From the sequence record OQ174500.1: a stretch of 64,000 bases of DNA; one strand, written 5' to 3'. This document shows, piece by piece, positions 3,208-38,717 of the stretch. The position numbers and the translations under genes are program-made. The notes beneath the pieces were generated by a model. The model saw nothing but the letters and a program-made list of their open reading frames with translations. It made no database searches and was not told the DNA's origin. The DNA is from Escherichia phage REP1. Numbering within the stretch: position 1 is the stretch's first letter; each line of letters begins with the position of its first letter.

Positions 3208-3615
3208 ATGAAACAGTTGATAATTAAAAGATTGAATTTATTGATATGTTGTTTATGCGTAGTAGTTGCATATGGTTATTATGCTATTAATGATTATATG
3301 CATTATAAAGATTATGATGTTACTGTAGTTAATACCTTTACAGGAACTCAAGGAAAGGGGTCTAGTTTATCGTTTATTGCCGTATATGAACTCAAAGACG
3401 GTTATAGATTTAGCGAATATATTTCCCCAGAGATGTATTCATCAATAGAAAAAGACGATAATATTACTGTAAGTTTACGTCCTTTCGACGTAAAACAGAC
3501 ATTGTTTGATAATATTGTTTGGTTCTTTGGAATGGTATTAGTTCAATCTGTATGCGGTGCTTATATAGTCTTTTCCATCATATTCTGCGTATTTAGTAAA
3601 ATTGAAATTGAGTGA
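3208..3615 (+). CDS. predicted membrane protein
   Basis: 135 aa, hydrophobic N- and C-terminal segments, very AT-rich. Confidence 0.55.
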   Translation: MKQLIIKRLNLLICCLCVVVAYGYYAINDYMHYKDYDVTVVNTFTGTQGKGSSLSFIAVYELKDGYRFSEYISPEMYSSIEKDDNITVSLRPFDVKQTLFDNIVWFFGMVLVQSVCGAYIVFSIIFCVFSKIEIE

Positions 3616-3622
3616 GGAAAAT

Positions 3623-4510
3623 ATGTCAGTAGTAATTAATAATGTCAATGCAGTAATTAAATCTTTAGTTAATAAAAAATTGAATGAATGGACTGTACTT
3701 CGTCGTGGAGAGCCAGATAAATTTTTTCATAGATTTAACCCAACTTTGGATTTGAATGTTATTGACAGAGATGTTCATGCAGAAATTTTAGATAAGTTTA
3801 AAGTTGATATTGGATTTGGATTAGAAAAACATTTACAGCGAACAAACGGGTCTGGAATGGGTTTATCTAATCGCATCATGAAAGCCCTTAATAAAATTGG
3901 AGCATTGTCTCGCATTAACGCGAGTGAAATTCTTCGCAATTATAATAAAGGATATGACCTTTATGGTCGACTAATGCCGAAATTGTCATTCGATCAAATG
4001 ATTGCGGATTTGTGGGAAAATCAACGACGATTATTAGCATTAGGTGCTCGATTGGCTAAAGGTCTAGATAAACAAATGATTTTTAAGACCAATAATACAG
4101 AAGACCTTAAATGCTTTAAATTTAGTATTCGCGGAGATGATTATTACATCAGAGCTCGCTCTACAGATTATGTTAATATGGGACATCATCTCTGTTTAGC
4201 TTTTGAAGTTTTAAAAGAAACCGGAACATTAGAATATTCGTCTGGTGCAAAATGCCCGATTGGTTCAAGTTGTATTTTAATTTATCGCCCGGATGAATCC
4301 AGTTCATCTAAATTACCTACAAAACCTGTACCAGTTCGTAGTAACGAAAAACATTCTGAACAAATTGATTATTTTAATAAGCAAATTGAAGAGCTGAATA
4401 TTTCTATTCAACAGTATGACGATGAAATTTTCAGACTATCTGGATTGAGTAGTAAAGCTAAATCTGAGCGTGAAAAATTAATTAAAATTGTTGATTTACT
4501 TAAATCTTAA
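3623..4510 (+). CDS. hypothetical protein with C-terminal coiled-coil tail (array member 1 of 4)
   Basis: ATG 3623 after GAGGAAA RBS; C-terminal heptad-like amphipathic segment. Confidence 0.6.
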   Translation: MSVVINNVNAVIKSLVNKKLNEWTVLRRGEPDKFFHRFNPTLDLNVIDRDVHAEILDKFKVDIGFGLEKHLQRTNGSGMGLSNRIMKALNKIGALSRINASEILRNYNKGYDLYGRLMPKLSFDQMIADLWENQRRLLALGARLAKGLDKQMIFKTNNTEDLKCFKFSIRGDDYYIRARSTDYVNMGHHLCLAFEVLKETGTLEYSSGAKCPIGSSCILIYRPDESSSSKLPTKPVPVRSNEKHSEQIDYFNKQIEELNISIQQYDDEIFRLSGLSSKAKSEREKLIKIVDLLKS

Positions 4511-15374: not shown

Positions 15375-15452
15375 CTGATATCCTCTATGCTTTAAGATAG
15401 ATCTTCAAATATTATGATATAATAGATCTATGAATTGAGCTAAGAGGTGAAA

Positions 15453-16010
15453 ATGTCAGAAACTAAGCCTAAATATAATTACGTAAACAATAAAGAGCTT
15501 TTACAAGCTATTATTGATTGGAAAACAGAATTAGCAAATAATAAAGACCCAAATAAAGTAGTTCGTCAGAATGATACTATCGGATTAGCCATTATGCTTA
15601 TTGCAGAAGGCTTATCTAAGCGTTTCAACTTTTCAGGATACACCCAGTCTTGGAAACAAGAAATGATTGCAGATGGTATAGAAGCTTCTATTAAGGGGCT
15701 TCACAATTTTGATGAAACGAAATATAAAAACCCACATGCATATATAACTCAAGCTTGTTTTAATGCATTCGTCCAGCGTATTAAAAAAGAACGTAAGGAA
15801 GTTGCAAAGAAATATAGTTACTTCGTTCACAATGTCTATGACAGCCGTGACGACGATATGGTTGCGTTAGTAGATGAAACTTTTATTCAAGACATCTATG
15901 ATAAAATGACGCATTACGAAGAATCAACCTATAGAACACCGGGGGCTGAAAAGAAAAGTGTTGTAGACGATTCTCCTAGTTTGGATTTTTTATATGAGGC
16001 TAACGATTAA
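15453..16010 (+). CDS. 55: late-transcription sigma factor gp55
   Basis: 185 aa from ATG 15453 ([20 protein letters not shown]...), matches recalled T4 gp55; AAGAGGTGA RBS. Confidence 0.9.
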
Positions 16011-16703: not shown

Positions 16704-16877
16704 AAGATGAACGCCCAGACTTGTGAAATAGATTATAATAAAATTCGTTCCTCTAAAGTAGAAATGATGAGACGCTTTAAAGAGTCTCATGATAAAGCTA
16801 AAGCAGAAGGAACTATAACATATAAGCGTATAAAATTTAGAAGCTCTAATGAGCCTCTGTATGGTGTATTATGCGGA

Positions 16878-16893
16878 TAGGAGCTTCGGCTCC
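16878..16893 (+). terminator. UUCG-tetraloop hairpin
   Basis: ggagc-ttcg-gctcc. Confidence 0.45.
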
Positions 16894-16896
16894 TAT

Positions 16897-16921
16897 ATTG
16901 CTTTATAAATTTTTGGTAAAA
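16897..16921 (+). promoter_or_regulatory. MotA-dependent middle promoter candidate for agt
   Basis: MotA box aTTGCTTTA with TAAAAT -10 about 15 nt downstream; same geometry as the gene 45 promoter at 22715. Confidence 0.5.
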
Positions 16922-16946
16922 TAAACCAAAACAATGAGGATATTAA

Positions 16947-18149
16947 ATGAAAGTATGCATTTTTATGGCTCGAGGTCTTGAAGGTTGTGGCGTAACTAAA
17001 TTTTCTCTTGAGCAGCGTGATTGGTTTATTAAAAATGGTCATGAAGTAACTTTGGTTTATGCTAAAGATAAATCATTTACCCGTAATTGCGCGCATGATT
17101 ATAAATCATTTTCAATTCCGGTTTTATTGGCAAAAGAATACGATAAAACACTTAAACTGGTAAATGATTGTGATATTCTAATTATCAATTCAGTTCCTGC
17201 TACTTCGGTTGAAGAAGACACTATTAATAACTATAAAAAAATTATTGATAACATTAAACCTTCTGTTCGTGTTGTAGTTTATCAACATGACCATTCTTCT
17301 CTTTCTTTGCGTCGAAATTTGGGATTAGAAGAAACTGTTCGTCGAGCTGATGTTATTTTTAGCCATTCTGATAATGGTGATTTTAATAAAGTTCTGATGA
17401 AAGAATGGTATCCAGAAACTGTTTCTCTGTTTGATGATATTGAAGAAGCACCGACAGTATATAACTTTCAGCCTCCTATGGATATTGCGAAGGTTCGGTC
17501 AACATACTGGAAAGATGTTTCTGAAATTAACATGAATATCAACCGTTGGATTGGTCGTACGACTACATGGAAAGGTTTTTATCAGATGTTTGATTTTCAT
17601 GAAAAACATCTTAAACCTGCAGGACTAAGTACTATTATGGAAGGTCTGGAACGTTCTCCAGCGTTCATTCCCATTAAAGAAAAAGGAATTCCATACGAGT
17701 ATTATCGTCTTCATCAAGTAGACCAAATTAAAATTGCTCCTAATTTGCCAACGCAAATTCTTGACCGTTATGTAAATAGCGAAATGCTTGAACGTATGAG
17801 TAAATCCGGATTTGGTTATCAGCTGAGTAAGTTGGACAAAAAATATCTACAACGTTCTTTAGAATATACTCATCTCGAGCTTGGTGCATGTGGAACAATT
17901 CCGGTATTTTGGAAATCTACTGGCGAAAATTTAAAATTCCGTGTTGATAATACTCCTTTGACCTCGCATGATAGCGGTATCATTTGGTTTGATGAAAATG
18001 ACATGGAATCAACATTTGAACGTATTAAAGAACTGTCATCTGACCGAGCTCTTTATGACCGTGAGCGAGAAAAAGCATATGAATTTTTGTATCAGCATCA
18101 AGATTCAAGCTTCTGCTTTAAAGAACAGTTTGACATTATTACAAAATAA
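16947..18149 (+). CDS. agt: DNA alpha-glucosyltransferase
   Basis: 400 aa; MKVCIFMARGLEGCGVTKF... matches recalled T4 alpha-gt; position between 55 and 47. Confidence 0.85.
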   Translation: MKVCIFMARGLEGCGVTKFSLEQRDWFIKNGHEVTLVYAKDKSFTRNCAHDYKSFSIPVLLAKEYDKTLKLVNDCDILIINSVPATSVEEDTINNYKKIIDNIKPSVRVVVYQHDHSSLSLRRNLGLEETVRRADVIFSHSDNGDFNKVLMKEWYPETVSLFDDIEEAPTVYNFQPPMDIAKVRSTYWKDVSEINMNINRWIGRTTTWKGFYQMFDFHEKHLKPAGLSTIMEGLERSPAFIPIKEKGIPYEYYRLHQVDQIKIAPNLPTQILDRYVNSEMLERMSKSGFGYQLSKLDKKYLQRSLEYTHLELGACGTIPVFWKSTGENLKFRVDNTPLTSHDSGIIWFDENDMESTFERIKELSSDRALYDREREKAYEFLYQHQDSSFCFKEQFDIITK

Positions 18150-18165
18150 AGGGCTTCGGCCCTTT
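18150..18165 (+). terminator. UUCG-tetraloop hairpin
   Basis: agggc-ttcg-gccct directly after the agt stop. Confidence 0.55.
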
Positions 18166-18325
18166 AGCTTTATGCGGAGTTTGATATAATGATATTTCTT
18201 GGATATGTGATACTTTTTCTTGCATTTTATCTATTCACTAGAGCATGTTGGATTGGGTTCTTTAGCACTCCAGATGGATTTATTTCAATAATTTTATTTT
18301 GCATTTCAATGACGGTTCTTGATAT

Positions 18326-18949
18326 ATGAAAAAATATATAACTTATTTAACAATATATAGTGGAGATAAACTTCCTCCTTTTTATATTGGATCTACATCT
18401 TTAGATAGGCATTTAGCTGGATATCATGGATCAGTTTTATCTAAAAAGTATAAGAAAATTTATAATAAAGAACTTTCAGATAACCCGCATCTATTTGATT
18501 CATGCATTTTAGCTGAATTTGATACGCGTGAAGAAGCTATTAAATGCGAGCTATATTATCAACGATTGCATGATGCAGTTAAAAATCCATTATTCTTTAA
18601 TATGTCATATGCTGCTCCAAAAGGTTCATTTGGAAGAGATATTAAAGGACAAAATCATCCATTATATGGTTCTCATAATTGTAAAGGAAATATACATTCA
18701 CATGATCCATTAACAGGAAAATCTGCATTTTTACCTTATATTCCAGAAGGTTATGTAAAAGGAAGGTCAAATAAATTTAAAGCTTCATCACATAATAAAG
18801 GTAAAAAATGGTATAATAACGGAGTTAAGCAAATGTTATGTCATGAACCTCCTGGTCCTGAATGGACAAAAGGAAAAATTAAAGAACTGGTTTCAAAAGC
18901 AGCTAAATTAGGATGGAAAAGACACCATGAAAATACTAAACTTGGGTGA
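18326..18949 (+). CDS. free-standing GIY-YIG homing-endonuclease-like protein (seg-like)
   Basis: 207 aa; YITY...FYIGST N-terminal motif, conserved acidic ILAEF segment, repeated NUMOD-like G-x-H-x-K motifs; markedly AT-rich; 3' end overlaps gene 47 start. Confidence 0.6.
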   Translation: MKKYITYLTIYSGDKLPPFYIGSTSLDRHLAGYHGSVLSKKYKKIYNKELSDNPHLFDSCILAEFDTREEAIKCELYYQRLHDAVKNPLFFNMSYAAPKGSFGRDIKGQNHPLYGSHNCKGNIHSHDPLTGKSAFLPYIPEGYVKGRSNKFKASSHNKGKKWYNNGVKQMLCHEPPGPEWTKGKIKELVSKAAKLGWKRHHENTKLG

Positions 18950-19946
18950 TTGGCATTTAGGCGTTAAAGCTGATGATGAGTGGATTCGCGGTATTCAAAT
19001 TGATGGAATTAAGCAAGCGATAGAATATTCTAAGAAAAATGGAATTACGGTATGGATTCAATACGGTGATATTTTTGATGTGCGAAAAGCGATCACGCAT
19101 AAAACTATGGAGTTTGCCCGTGAAATAGTTCAAATGCTTGATGGTGCTGGAATCACATTACATACTATTGTAGGAAATCACGATCTCCACTACAAAAATG
19201 TAATGCATCCAAATGCTTCTACTGAGCTTTTGGCTAAATATCCTAATGTTAAAGTATATGATAAGCCTACTACAGTAGATTTTGACGGATGTTTGATTGA
19301 TTTAATTCCTTGGATGTGTGAAGAAAATACTGGTGAAATTCTTGAACACATCAAAACTTCATCTGCTTCTTTTTGTGTTGGTCACTGGGAACTGAATGGA
19401 TTTTATTTTTATAAAGGAATGAAATCTCACGGTCTTGAACCTGATTTCCTTAAGACTTATAAAGAAGTGTGGTCTGGTCACTTCCATACTATCTCTGAGG
19501 CTGCTAACGTCAGATATATTGGGACACCATGGACACTAACTGCAGGTGACGAGAATGACCCTCGCGGGTTCTGGATGTTTGATACAGAAACAGAACGAAT
19601 GGAATTTATTCCAAACAATACTACCTGGCATCGTAGAATTCATTATCCATTTAAAGGAAAAATTGACTATAAAGATTTTACAAATCTATCAGTACGTGTT
19701 ATAGTAACTGAAGTAGACAAAAATCTGACGAAGTTTGAATCTGAACTAGAGAAAGTTGTGCATTCATTACGAGTTGTGTCAAAGATTGATAACTCTGTCG
19801 AGTCAGATGACAGTGAAGAAGTTGAAGTTCAATCTCTTCAGACGTTGATGGAAGAATACATTAATGCAATTCCAGACATCACTGATTCTGATCGCGAAGC
19901 ACTTATTCAATATGCAAATCAGTTATATGTAGAGGCAACACAATGA
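18927..19946 (+). CDS. 47: recombination nuclease subunit gp47 (Mre11-like)
   Basis: 339 aa; phosphoesterase motifs LGDWHLG, GNHD. Confidence 0.85.
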   Translation: MKILNLGDWHLGVKADDEWIRGIQIDGIKQAIEYSKKNGITVWIQYGDIFDVRKAITHKTMEFAREIVQMLDGAGITLHTIVGNHDLHYKNVMHPNASTELLAKYPNVKVYDKPTTVDFDGCLIDLIPWMCEENTGEILEHIKTSSASFCVGHWELNGFYFYKGMKSHGLEPDFLKTYKEVWSGHFHTISEAANVRYIGTPWTLTAGDENDPRGFWMFDTETERMEFIPNNTTWHRRIHYPFKGKIDYKDFTNLSVRVIVTEVDKNLTKFESELEKVVHSLRVVSKIDNSVESDDSEEVEVQSLQTLMEEYINAIPDITDSDREALIQYANQLYVEATQ

Positions 19947-20206: not shown

Positions 20207-20393
20207 CATTAATGATGAATTCATAGCAAACATTGATTATACCGAAGAAGATTCTAGATATGTTGGAATAATTTATATTACATCAAAAACAGCACAAGGT
20301 GTTGTTTGCATGGCTGAATTTGATGAATACTTTTTAGATTATGATGATATGATAGAATGGTCTAAAAGATACATTAAAAGGAATCTTTTGTGA
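20178..20393 (+). CDS. hypothetical small protein
   Basis: 71 aa from ATG 20178 with AAGGA RBS; overlaps neighbours on both sides. Confidence 0.4.
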   Translation: MHTVKFSTFDINDEFIANIDYTEEDSRYVGIIYITSKTAQGVVCMAEFDEYFLDYDDMIEWSKRYIKRNLL

Positions 20394-22072
20394 AGAATTT
20401 TAAACTAAACCGAGTTAGGTATCAAAATATAATGTCAGTAGGTGGAAATCCTATTGACATTCAATTAGATAAGGTTCAAAAAACTCTTATTACTGGACGA
20501 AATGGCGGTGGTAAGTCTACTATGTTAGAAGCCATCACATTTGGGCTTTTTGGCAAGCCATTTCGCGATGTAAAGAAAGGTCAATTAATAAACAGCACAA
20601 ATAAGAAAGAACTTTTAGTTGAACTGTGGATGGAATATGATGAGAAAAAGTACTATATCAAAAGAGGACAAAAACCGAACGTTTTTGAAATCACCGTTAA
20701 CGGTACACGTCTTAATGAATCTGCCAGCAGTAAAGATTTCCAAGCAGAATTTGAACAGCTTATCGGAATGTCATATGCCAGTTTCAAGCAGATTGTTGTC
20801 CTTGGTACAGCAGGGTATACCCCTTTCATGGGTTTGTCGACCCCTGCACGAAGAAAGCTTGTGGAAGACCTGCTTGAGGTAGGAACATTAGCTGAAATGG
20901 ATAAGCTTAATAAAGCACTAATACGTGAATTAAATTCGCAGAACCAAGTGCTTGATGTTAAAAAAGATAGTATTATCCAACAAATTAAAATATATAATGA
21001 TAATGTTGAACGCCAGAAAAAATTGTCTGGTGACAACCTTACTCGTCTACAAAATATGTATGATGATTTGGCAAAAGAAGCTAGAACGCTAAAATCGGAA
21101 ATAGAAGAAGCTAATGAAAGATTAGTTAATATTGTTTTGGATGAAGACCCGACTGATGCATTTAATAAAATCGGTCAAGAAGCAGTTTTAATTAAATCAA
21201 AAATTGACTCGTATAATAAAGTCATTAATATGTATCACGAAGGTGGATTATGTCCAACCTGTTTGTCACAATTAAGTTCCGGTGATAAAGTTGTTTCTAA
21301 AATTAAAGATAAAGTTTCTGAATGTACGCATTCGTTTGAACAGCTTTCAACACACCGTGATAATTTAAAAGTTCTTGTCGATGAATACCGAGATAATATT
21401 AAAACCCAACAGTCGTTGGCGAATGATATTCGCAATAAAAAGCAATCCCTAATCACAACGGTAGATAAAGCTAAAAAAGTTAAAGCAGCTATAGAAAAAG
21501 CATCTTCTGAGTTTATTGACCATGCTGATGAAATAGCACTGCTTCAAGAAGAACTTGATAAAATTATTAAGACAAAAACTAATTTAGTAATGGAAAAATA
21601 CCACCGAGGAATTTTGACTGATATGCTCAAAGATTCTGGTATTAAAGGTGCTATTATTAAAAAGTACATTCCATTATTTAATAAGCAGATTAACCATTAT
21701 CTTAAAATAATGGAAGCGGATTATGTGTTTACATTAGATGAAGAATTTAATGAGACAATTAAATCCCGTGGTCGTGAAGATTTTAGTTATGCTTCATTCA
21801 GTCAAGGTGAAAAAGCGCGAATTGATATTGCTCTTTTATTTACTTGGCGTGATATTGCTGAAAAAGTTTCAGGTGTTAAAATAAACACACTAATTCTTGA
21901 TGAAGTTTTTGATTCAGCGACCGACGTTGAAGGTGTAAAAGCTATTTCAACTATTTTAGATAGTTTAAAAAATACTAATGTTTTTGTTATTTCACATAGA
22001 GACCATGACCCGCAAGCATACGGTCAGCATCTTCAAATGAAGAAAGTTGGTCGATTTACTGTAATGGTTTAA
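20390..22072 (+). CDS. 46: recombination nuclease subunit gp46 (Rad50/SbcC-like)
   Basis: 560 aa; Walker A GRNGGGKST, CPTC zinc hook, Walker B ILDEVFDS; GTG start overlapping upstream stop. Confidence 0.85.
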   Translation: MKNFKLNRVRYQNIMSVGGNPIDIQLDKVQKTLITGRNGGGKSTMLEAITFGLFGKPFRDVKKGQLINSTNKKELLVELWMEYDEKKYYIKRGQKPNVFEITVNGTRLNESASSKDFQAEFEQLIGMSYASFKQIVVLGTAGYTPFMGLSTPARRKLVEDLLEVGTLAEMDKLNKALIRELNSQNQVLDVKKDSIIQQIKIYNDNVERQKKLSGDNLTRLQNMYDDLAKEARTLKSEIEEANERLVNIVLDEDPTDAFNKIGQEAVLIKSKIDSYNKVINMYHEGGLCPTCLSQLSSGDKVVSKIKDKVSECTHSFEQLSTHRDNLKVLVDEYRDNIKTQQSLANDIRNKKQSLITTVDKAKKVKAAIEKASSEFIDHADEIALLQEELDKIIKTKTNLVMEKYHRGILTDMLKDSGIKGAIIKKYIPLFNKQINHYLKIMEADYVFTLDEEFNETIKSRGREDFSYASFSQGEKARIDIALLFTWRDIAEKVSGVKINTLILDEVFDSATDVEGVKAISTILDSLKNTNVFVISHRDHDPQAYGQHLQMKKVGRFTVMV

Positions 22073-37558: not shown

Positions 37559-38077
37559 ATGGCTTACTTTAATGAATGTGCTCATTTGATCGAAGGTGTT
37601 GATAAAGCAAATCGTGCATATGCTGAGAATATTATGCACAATATTGACCCACTGCAGGTTATGCTTGATATGCAGCGGCATTTACAGATTCGTTTGGCTA
37701 ATGATAAACCAGAAACAAATCGTCATCCTGATTCACTTGAAACTGCAGGAGAAGTTCTTGCTTGGTTGCGAAACCAAGACGATTATATCGCAGATGAAAC
37801 TCGCGAGCTATATACTTCTCTTGGTGGTATGAGTAATGGTGAAAAAGAAGCTTCTGCCGTATGGAAACCTTGGAAGAAACGTTATTCTGAAATGCAATCC
37901 AAGAAAATTCAAGACTTATCTCCTGAAGATCAGCTTGAAATTAAATTTGAACTGATTGACCAATTTCACTTTTTCATGAATAAATTTATTGCTCTTGGAA
38001 TGTCAGCTGAAGAAATCTTTAAACTTTATTACCTGAAAAATGCTGAAAACTTCGCTCGTCAAGACCGAGGTTATTAA
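37559..38077 (+). CDS. 56: dCTP/dCDP pyrophosphatase gp56
   Basis: 172 aa from ATG 37559; MazG-like acidic helical protein; track start 37481 lies on top of the antisense ORF and promoter. Confidence 0.65.
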   Translation: MAYFNECAHLIEGVDKANRAYAENIMHNIDPLQVMLDMQRHLQIRLANDKPETNRHPDSLETAGEVLAWLRNQDDYIADETRELYTSLGGMSNGEKEASAVWKPWKKRYSEMQSKKIQDLSPEDQLEIKFELIDQFHFFMNKFIALGMSAEEIFKLYYLKNAENFARQDRGY

Positions 38078-38271
38078 TGGCTCGTTTAAATAAGCGTCAG
38101 CTTAAGAAAGCTCATAAGAAACGTATTGACCAACTATTTAAAGATTATGACAAGGAGCTCGTGTGTGAGCTCTTAACTAATCAACTTCGTATGGTTGAAG
38201 TTATAGAAGGTCCTGACGAAATTTTTGTCAGTGAAGAAGCTTTAAAATTAATTATAGAGCATTCAAAATGA
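38077..38271 (+). CDS. hypothetical small protein
   Basis: 64-codon ORF, ATGA overlap with gene 56. Confidence 0.5.
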   Translation: MARLNKRQLKKAHKKRIDQLFKDYDKELVCELLTNQLRMVEVIEGPDEIFVSEEALKLIIEHSK

Positions 38272-38441
38272 AAATATCCAAAGAAGAATTTATTAGACGT
38301 CAAAAAGCTTTAATTAATTTACACGAGTGGTATGCTTATCAACTTAAAGTAGATAGCTCTAATATAAATGCTGTAATGGCTTTATATAAACAAATTCAAG
38401 ATGAACACGAATTCCTGGCACAAGTTTTCATTGAAGACTGA
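38268..38441 (+). CDS. hypothetical small protein
   Basis: 57 aa, ATGA overlap with the upstream gene; not in the ORF track. Confidence 0.4.
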   Translation: MKISKEEFIRRQKALINLHEWYAYQLKVDSSNINAVMALYKQIQDEHEFLAQVFIED

Positions 38442-38449
38442 TATAAATA
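38442..38449 (+). promoter_or_regulatory. late promoter (TATAAATA) for soc
   Basis: Exact TATAAATA 32 nt upstream of the soc ATG. Confidence 0.65.
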
Positions 38450-38480
38450 CACCTGTAATTAAACAATAAAGGAGTTTATT

Positions 38481-38717
38481 ATGGGTGGTTTCGTTAACAT
38501 CAAGACCTTTACTCATCCAGCAGGTGAAGGCAAAGAAGTTAAAGGTATGGAAGTTTCTGTAGCATTTGATGTATATTCAAATGAACACCGTATTGCAGAT
38601 TCTCATTATCAAATCTTTCCGTCAGAAAAAGCAGCTTATTCTGATGTAGTTTCCGATGCAGCAACTTGGAAAACTAAGAATGCTGCAATGTTTACACCTA
38701 CAGAAATAGGTGGTTAA
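38481..38717 (+). CDS. soc: small outer capsid protein
   Basis: 78 aa; VNIKTF...VSVAF...HYQIFPSEKAAYS resembles recalled T4 Soc. Confidence 0.75.
   Translation: MGGFVNIKTFTHPAGEGKEVKGMEVSVAFDVYSNEHRIADSHYQIFPSEKAAYSDVVSDAATWKTKNAAMFTPTEIGG

Follow-up and report, generated by a model that had tools for sequence, protein, structure and literature searches.

In Escherichia phage REP1 (sequence record OQ174500.1), of which a stretch of 64,000 nucleotides (the window) was analysed, an open reading frame (ORF) of 207 codons that resembles a GIY-YIG homing endonuclease begins with an ATG at position 18326 and ends at 18949, inside the start of gene 47, and this arrangement raises the question of what the ORF is and how it came to lie there. 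An earlier note, made from the letters of the sequence, had taken it for a free-standing seg-type homing endonuclease gene, and the comparisons reported here support that view, which held up against both of the refuting conditions proposed with it: the predicted fold, a precise empty site and the absence of the ORF from most relatives make it likely that this ORF, called HEG (homing endonuclease gene) below, is a free-standing Seg-type GIY-YIG homing endonuclease gene inserted precisely between genes 47.1 and 47. All features of the window that are given with coordinates lie on the + strand. The window is a T4-like (Tequatrovirus) genome, and because its best public match, phage FriedrichMiescher, is only 98.1% identical to it over 24 kb, it is identical to no record searched.

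When the window was aligned with phages T2, PE37 and T4, which lack HEG, we found a single clean insertion of 601 bp between gene 47.1 (18189-18329) and gene 47 (18927-19946), so that the comparison with insert-less relatives proposed earlier came out in favor of an inserted gene. The insert occupies 18326-18926 but, because of a flanking 7-nt direct repeat (ATGAAAA), can equally be placed at 18333-18933. The left copy of the repeat (18326-18332) covers the HEG start codon region and corresponds to the gene 47 start of empty sites, and the right copy (18927-18933) is the gene 47 start of the window. Carriers have 601 nt between the end of 47.1 and the ATG of gene 47, and non-carriers have 0; the ATGA that forms the 47.1 stop and the gene 47 start in empty genomes forms the 47.1 stop and the HEG start in the window. 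The start of gene 47 now lies inside the last codons of HEG, the two genes sharing 23 nt (gene 47 ATG at 18927), which agrees with the overlap noticed before. The earlier note had placed the ORF between agt and gene 47, preceded by about 175 bp of non-coding DNA (18150-18325). It does adjoin gene 47, but since the upstream 175 bp hold gene 47.1, together with a hairpin and a promoter-like site, that DNA is not non-coding and the insert sits between 47.1 and 47. The statement that the ORF is much more AT-rich than its neighbors was right in direction and too strong in degree: the GC content of HEG is 29.8%, compared to 34.5% for agt, 36.2% for gene 47 and a window mean of 34.6% (standard deviation 2.8), which puts HEG in the lowest 4.5% of 601-nt windows, a real but modest shift.

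In order to count carriers, BLAST searches were performed with 100-nt hybrid queries spanning the filled and the empty junction. The filled junction was found in 73 records and the empty junction in about 509, so that among approximately 580 Tequatrovirus records some 12.5% carry the ORF, and most relatives are without it. In carriers the flanks are mosaic, with different haplotype groups upstream (the 3' end of agt) and downstream (gene 47 beyond +45), indicating that the insert occurs on several backgrounds or moves between them. No paralog of HEG was found within the window. A scan of IMG/VR with the gene 47 start pattern returned only 6 loci, all of them empty sites and too few for statistics. 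An apparent internally deleted HEG copy in KNP1/KNP5 was rejected, as it proved to be a run of N in an UNVERIFIED record (KNP5, KX452698.1); this record pair and ERS-1, described below, were excluded as evidence.

The GIY-YIG-like N-terminus (YITY...FYIGST) seen in the earlier note was confirmed, and the Pfam GIY-YIG family (PF01541) matches residues 4-84 with an E-value of 3e-4 over profile positions 2-74 of 78, slightly below its gathering score; at E<=0.01 the same family is found in 15 of 59 HEG homologs. The catalytic domain spans codons 4-95 (18335-18610) and includes Y7, Y20-I21-G22, R28, E75 and N92. In an alignment of the 59 homologs, Y7, Y20, I21 and G22, as well as R68, are at least 90% conserved, while E75 and N92 are invariant, in keeping with the conserved acidic segment noted previously, and E75 aligns with E75 of I-TevI. 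An AlphaFold2 model built from this alignment gave a pLDDT (the confidence score of the model) above 95 for residues 1-95, with the motifs Y4-I5-T6-Y7 and F19-Y20-I21-G22 lying within the modelled strands E4-11 and E19-25. A Foldseek search of the model against the PDB returned the I-TevI catalytic domain as its three best matches (probability 0.99), followed by UvrC and further GIY-YIG nucleases; T4 EndoII and the defence nuclease PD-T4-3 were also among the structural matches. As modelled, HEG thus has the GIY-YIG alpha/beta fold.

To place HEG among known enzymes, the T4 homing endonucleases were taken from the T4T record and scored with a hidden Markov model (HMM) of the N-terminal 110 residues of the HEG family. 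SegE scored 26.9 bits (about 85 residues aligned) and SegG 24.3, followed by SegB (15.6), SegD (14.7), SegA (11.1) and SegC (9.1); I-TevI, I-TevII, SegF and the HNH enzymes MobA and MobB all remained at background. Since tblastn with HEG at E<=1e-5 matched no T4 seg locus, HEG appears from these comparisons to be seg-like through a weak relationship and the ortholog of no T4 seg gene. The free-standing GIY-YIG homing endonucleases of T-even phages are known for intronless homing and localised marker exclusion (PMC2988022), and HEG fits this established class as an uncharacterised member. SegE, the closest T4 match, shares with HEG the core 'YIG...S...(D)GY.GS' and a length of about 200 aa. Its gene, between inh and uvsW in the order seen in T4T, likewise lies in the same orientation directly upstream of a repair/recombination gene, and uvsW is listed as the SegE target (Table 1, PMC2988022). 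The two differ in that the insertion site and presumed target of HEG is gene 47 and not uvsW, in that their overall similarity is low, below the tblastn threshold just given, with unrelated C-terminal regions, and in that the activity of SegE was shown experimentally whereas that of HEG is predicted. SegG and SegF, at genes 32 and 56, are promoter-less cassettes within an existing operon (PMC2988022), as is HEG, and by analogy with them double-strand break repair with co-conversion of the flanks would be expected for HEG too, although SegF is not detectably similar to the HEG family. I-TevI, from the T4 td intron, has no significant sequence similarity to HEG, is intron-encoded whereas HEG is free-standing, and carries a zinc finger and a helix-turn-helix that Pfam did not detect in HEG.

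The C-terminal half proved to be organized differently from what had been proposed. The earlier note had read NUMOD-like repeats in the ORF; Pfam NUMOD3 (PF07460) gave no match in HEG even at E<=1, and only one degenerate 'GxNHPxYG' half-motif (GQNHPLYG) is present where homologs bear NUMOD3 repeats. NUMOD3 was matched in 32 of the 59 homologs having the N-terminal domain of HEG. Residues 100-155 were modelled with low confidence, as a flexible linker, and codons 157-202 (18794-18931) form a confidently modelled module consisting of a beta-hairpin (KKWYNNG...QMLC), a short strand and a long helix, which is presumed from the model to be the DNA-binding domain. A sister clade was found 5' of the gene for the topoisomerase II large subunit in Yersinia phage TG1 and Escherichia phage Bp7. 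Its N-terminal nuclease domain is approximately 65% identical to that of HEG, and its genes (1498-2181 of the retrieved stretch in TG1 and 1504-2184 in Bp7), like HEG, adjoin a conserved gene of DNA metabolism, here the topoisomerase gene, and overlap its start. In contrast to HEG, they have NUMOD3 C-termini, and the flanking gene is another one. The target-adjacent position therefore seems to change together with the C-terminal region, as a modular homing endonuclease predicts, and the gene 47 and topoisomerase clades would be a textbook example of a single nuclease domain joined by recombination to more than one DNA-binding module. T4 has an unrelated HNH gene, mobA, in its topoisomerase region, between genes 39 and 60.

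The association with gene 47 extends beyond Tequatrovirus. Six further genera, namely Gelderlandvirus (SEA1), Jiaodavirus (KP185), Winklervirus (LC53), Dhakavirus (QL01), Mosigvirus (AV116) and Biquartavirus (Aeromonas phage L9-6), have full-length homologs (50-76% identity) that adjoin gene 47 on its 5' side, and gene 47 is thereby the neighbor of all members of this HEG lineage. Their upstream neighbors vary by genus (agt, a-gt.2-like ORFs and others), and the C-terminal tail of HEG also varies between genera. In Gelderlandvirus the gene is sporadic too, phage S16 having an unrelated ORF at the equivalent position. The TGA stop of HEG sits in GGTGAT, the Gly-Asp codons of the GDWHLG motif of gp47 (18945-18949), and the end of the SEA1 ortholog falls on these conserved bases too (about 2114-2118 of the retrieved stretch).

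From these comparisons we infer for HEG a nuclease activity, a place of cleavage, immunity of carriers and homing. In a mixed infection, the enzyme would cut an insert-less competitor at or near the 47.1/47 junction, in the 5' end of gene 47; the phage recombination machinery would repair the break with the HEG-carrying genome as template, and the repair would copy HEG and adjacent nucleotides into the competitor, which is homing and would be seen as localised marker exclusion. The gene 47 nuclease itself is listed in a review as possibly involved in homing (PMC2988022). The recognition or cleavage site would lie where 47.1 meets gene 47 and in the first few codons of the latter. The carrier's own site would be protected by the insert that splits it and probably also by four changes in codons 3-6 of gene 47 that are silent for gp47. 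These substitutions, at +9, +10, +15 and +18 of gene 47 (18935-18944), give the window-type codons ATA CTA AAC TTG in place of the T4-type ATT TTA AAT TTA. Exactly these four positions differ from the T4 type in 72 of the 73 filled-junction records, and window-type codons occur in only about 7 of the 509 empty-junction records (SHFML-26, BCPEco_001, BCPSen_003 and Ec_YwIITB1, and probably PBM-1, UGKSEcP1 and EPIMAM01). The single carrier with T4-type codons, ERS-1 (PP337211.1), was rejected as uninformative because it is an UNVERIFIED_ORG record with a frameshift-ridden HEG copy; phage P922 has three of the four substitutions. A Fisher test of the link between insert and window-type codons, uncorrected for relatedness, gave p of about 1e-82, a value that overstates the evidence because the genomes are related and the sites closely linked. 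Four differences in 10 nt against a background divergence of about 3% have a probability of approximately 2e-4, and no other flanking polymorphism co-varied with the insert. The 26 nt that follow are invariant in all compared Tequatrovirus genomes and nearly so across genera. They include GGTGATTGGCATTTAGG (18945-18961; six genera compared, plus S16), which encodes the GDWHLG metallophosphoesterase motif of gp47, contains the TGA stop of HEG and is a candidate anchor of the HEG recognition site. Between SEA1, a carrier, and S16, a non-carrier, gene 47 has silent differences at +12, +15 and +24 (2096-2120 of the retrieved SEA1 stretch); these are 3 of the 40 differences in its 1023 nt, a weak excess within the first 24 nt from a single genome pair.

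Several observations weigh against this interpretation. The Pfam GIY-YIG score of HEG, 21.4 bits, is below the 22.6-bit gathering score; sequence and profile searches of the PDB with HEG gave no match, and hhalign of HEG against I-TevI reached no significance. The equivalent of the catalytic Arg of I-TevI is R28 in HEG and a K in many homologs, and the presumed DNA-binding region matches no known module. In our literature searches no paper was found that describes or characterises HEG. Seg enzymes that have been characterised often cleave DNA far from where their genes are inserted (PMC2988022), so HEG need not cut at codons 3-6. The four substitutions are silent for gp47 and at the same time missense in the overlapping HEG frame, where the tail reads NTKLG* compared to NFKFR*. 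Moreover, they lie no more than 18 nt from the insert, so that physical linkage alone could keep them together; sites 9-18 nt away will co-convert with the insert whatever the selection.

Based on these last points, the four substitutions may be a hitch-hiking remnant of donor DNA, or the product of selection on the HEG tail, rather than a protection against self-cleavage, and we give this explanation a substantial chance, if somewhat short of an even one. Crossovers are rare within 9-18 nt of the insertion point, the variation of the tail between genera and its missense changes would suit selection acting there, and the excess between SEA1 and S16 is weak. What speaks for protection is the clustering of the changes, far above background and followed by 26 invariant nucleotides, and the fact that they keep the gp47 sequence exactly. 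Selection on the HEG tail is unlikely because the tail is disordered in the model (pLDDT of about 52) and not conserved. Co-conversion and immunity can also both hold, and the substitutions fit either target-site immunity or tight co-conversion. The empty genomes with window-type codons are consistent either with precise loss of the insert between the 7-nt repeats or with pre-existing resistant alleles.

If the substitutions do mark the target, HEG would depart from the Seg enzymes reviewed. Free-standing enzymes are described as cleaving at a distance of hundreds of bp or more from the gene that encodes them (PMC2988022), whereas the polymorphisms linked to HEG are only 9-18 nt from the insertion point, a position that hints at an intron-like arrangement in which the target is the insertion site. 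An extended form of this proposal, which we regard as tentative and less likely than not, is that the HEG lineage is free-standing yet behaves like an intron-encoded enzyme: its recognition site would span the insertion point at the gene 47 start codon and be anchored on the DNA that encodes GDWHLG, the lineage would in this way have tracked one site through seven or more genera, the four gp47-silent changes would immunise carriers, and the essential gene 47 would have been made dependent on the element through translational coupling.

This coupling bears on how HEG is expressed and whether it still moves. Near HEG, sigma-70-like promoter matches were found at chance level only, and the late promoter TATAAATA was found nowhere within 19 kb. 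From the sequence context, the best description of the insert is that of a cassette without its own promoter within the 47.1-47-46 operon, and segC, segF, segG and several mob genes have been described likewise (PMC2988022; review by Edgell, Gibb and Belfort). In empty genomes it is gene 47 that is translationally coupled to 47.1, and HEG appears to have taken this coupling over. RNA folding, which sought structures that regulate translation or a cause of the silent gene 47 substitutions, gave folds no better than shuffles at both start-codon junctions of the filled site and at the empty junction. Such embedding in the expression signals of the host operon could mean that HEG is a former homing gene, no longer mobile, that was kept because gene 47 translation depends on it and that spread by ordinary recombination and descent. 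The passing of the ATGA coupling from gene 47 to HEG, the gene 47 start 23 nt inside it and the lack of a promoter of its own all suit this explanation, and embedded host expression signals favor the retention of such genes (PMC2988022). We nevertheless consider it improbable. Six intact HEG copies from different phages have 25 synonymous and 8 non-synonymous variable codons, indicating that HEG is under purifying selection, which acts over the whole protein including the catalytic domain, where E75 and N92 are intact. The insert is found on several different flanking haplotypes, and without site-specific invasion it would be difficult to account for orthologs at one and the same site in seven genera. 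In addition, the seven insert-less genomes with window-type codons show that a phage can lose or lack the insert without harm.

A less favored alternative to a homing function is that HEG encodes a GIY-YIG nuclease with a non-homing use, such as degradation of host or competitor DNA or a role in anti-defence or phage-phage conflict, and that it merely occupies a permissive place between genes. The GIY-YIG fold of T4 EndoII and PD-T4-3, both structural matches of the model, would allow this, and a T-even seg gene was recently linked to immune evasion (PMC13096335). However, seven genera strictly keep the position beside gene 47 although their upstream neighbors differ, the insertion is precise and sporadic, and Seg proteins are the closest sequence relatives; precise sporadic insertion, a fixed site and Seg kinship look like the signatures of a site-specific selfish element and not of a general nuclease, so that we judge a non-homing use to be quite unlikely. 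That HEG is an HNH endonuclease can be set aside with near certainty, since annotation alone (many RefSeq records and PHROG 10820) favors it, while no HNH family was found in HEG by Pfam at E<=1, the best structural matches are all GIY-YIG nucleases and the HEG-family profile matched neither T4 MobA nor MobB; the RefSeq label is wrong and no test backs it. The family is called 'HNH endonuclease' in phrog_10820 and many RefSeq records and 'hypothetical protein' in many GenBank records, HEG had no match in NCBIfam, and 'putative homing endonuclease' is already used in some public records (FriedrichMiescher, PaulHMueller and Killian).

With HEG read as a homing endonuclease gene, three features go a little beyond the routine for its class: the fidelity to a site beside gene 47 in seven genera, the closely clustered, insert-linked substitutions that are silent for gp47, and the hint that, unlike in the Seg enzymes reviewed, the target may coincide with the insertion point. 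If active, HEG would add one more to the natural marker-exclusion elements of T-even phages, with the recombination-nuclease region of genes 46 and 47 as its place of action, and would bias the outcome of co-infections among Tequatrovirus phages, which are now widely isolated for therapy. Empty, filled and natural empty 'immune-type' sites (for example SHFML-26) are all available in sequenced phages and form a compact test system, suited to asking how GIY-YIG homing enzymes choose and lose their targets; the gene 47 and topoisomerase-gene clades suit the study of re-targeting through a swap of the DNA-binding module. In practical terms, most public records mislabel the HEG family, as 'HNH endonuclease' or 'hypothetical protein', and often leave 47.1 unannotated.

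The genes around the junction are arranged as follows. Gene 55 (15447-16010) is followed by small a-gt.x ORFs and by agt (16947-18149; Pfam AGT, E 2e-237). Directly 3' of the agt stop codon, reading of the sequence and a scan for terminator-like structures identified a hairpin, AAAGGGC-TTCG-GCCCTTT (18148-18165), which is identical in T2, PE37 and T4, carries a putative-terminator annotation in phage GiZh, and belongs to the context kept in insert-less phages, outside the mobile insert. It is followed by a promoter-like site read by eye (18165-18190), consisting of TAGCTTTA, a 12-nt spacer and TATAAT. We take TAGCTTTA to be a by-eye candidate that resembles the MotA box of the T4 middle-promoter consensus. 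The site is likewise common to insert-less phages, one public record has a promoter annotated within the equivalent stretch, and the site is the probable source of the 47.1-HEG-47 transcript. Gene 47.1 encodes 46 aa, is preceded by a GGAG Shine-Dalgarno sequence at 18176 and overlaps the HEG start with its stop codon. It matches phrog_6693 (E 1.5e-31), and about 500 phage records contain it. The T2 and T4 annotations call its product a predicted membrane protein; many public records, such as those of PE37 and GiZh, have no annotation for it. Gene 47 encodes the SbcD/Mre11-like nuclease subunit, a metallophosphoesterase (Pfam Metallophos match), and is followed by 46.2 and 46.1 and then by gene 46 (20390-22072).

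Other endonuclease genes come and go in this region. T4 has an HNH endonuclease gene, mobB, between a-gt.2 and agt (37872-38666 in the retrieved T4T sequence), which is missing from the window (16707-16947). In the record of T4 strain 147 both agt and mobB are absent and 47.1 directly follows a-gt.2 (1311-1681 of the retrieved stretch). At 20390 of the window the 46.1 stop overlaps the gene 46 start, with no endonuclease gene between them. Some relatives have a different annotated homing endonuclease gene at that place, between 46.1 and 46, including T2 (3390-3431 of the retrieved stretch), SHFML-26 (3504-4100) and BCPEco_001 (3504-4100), so that in different phages the 47-46 region has optional endonuclease genes at its flanks.

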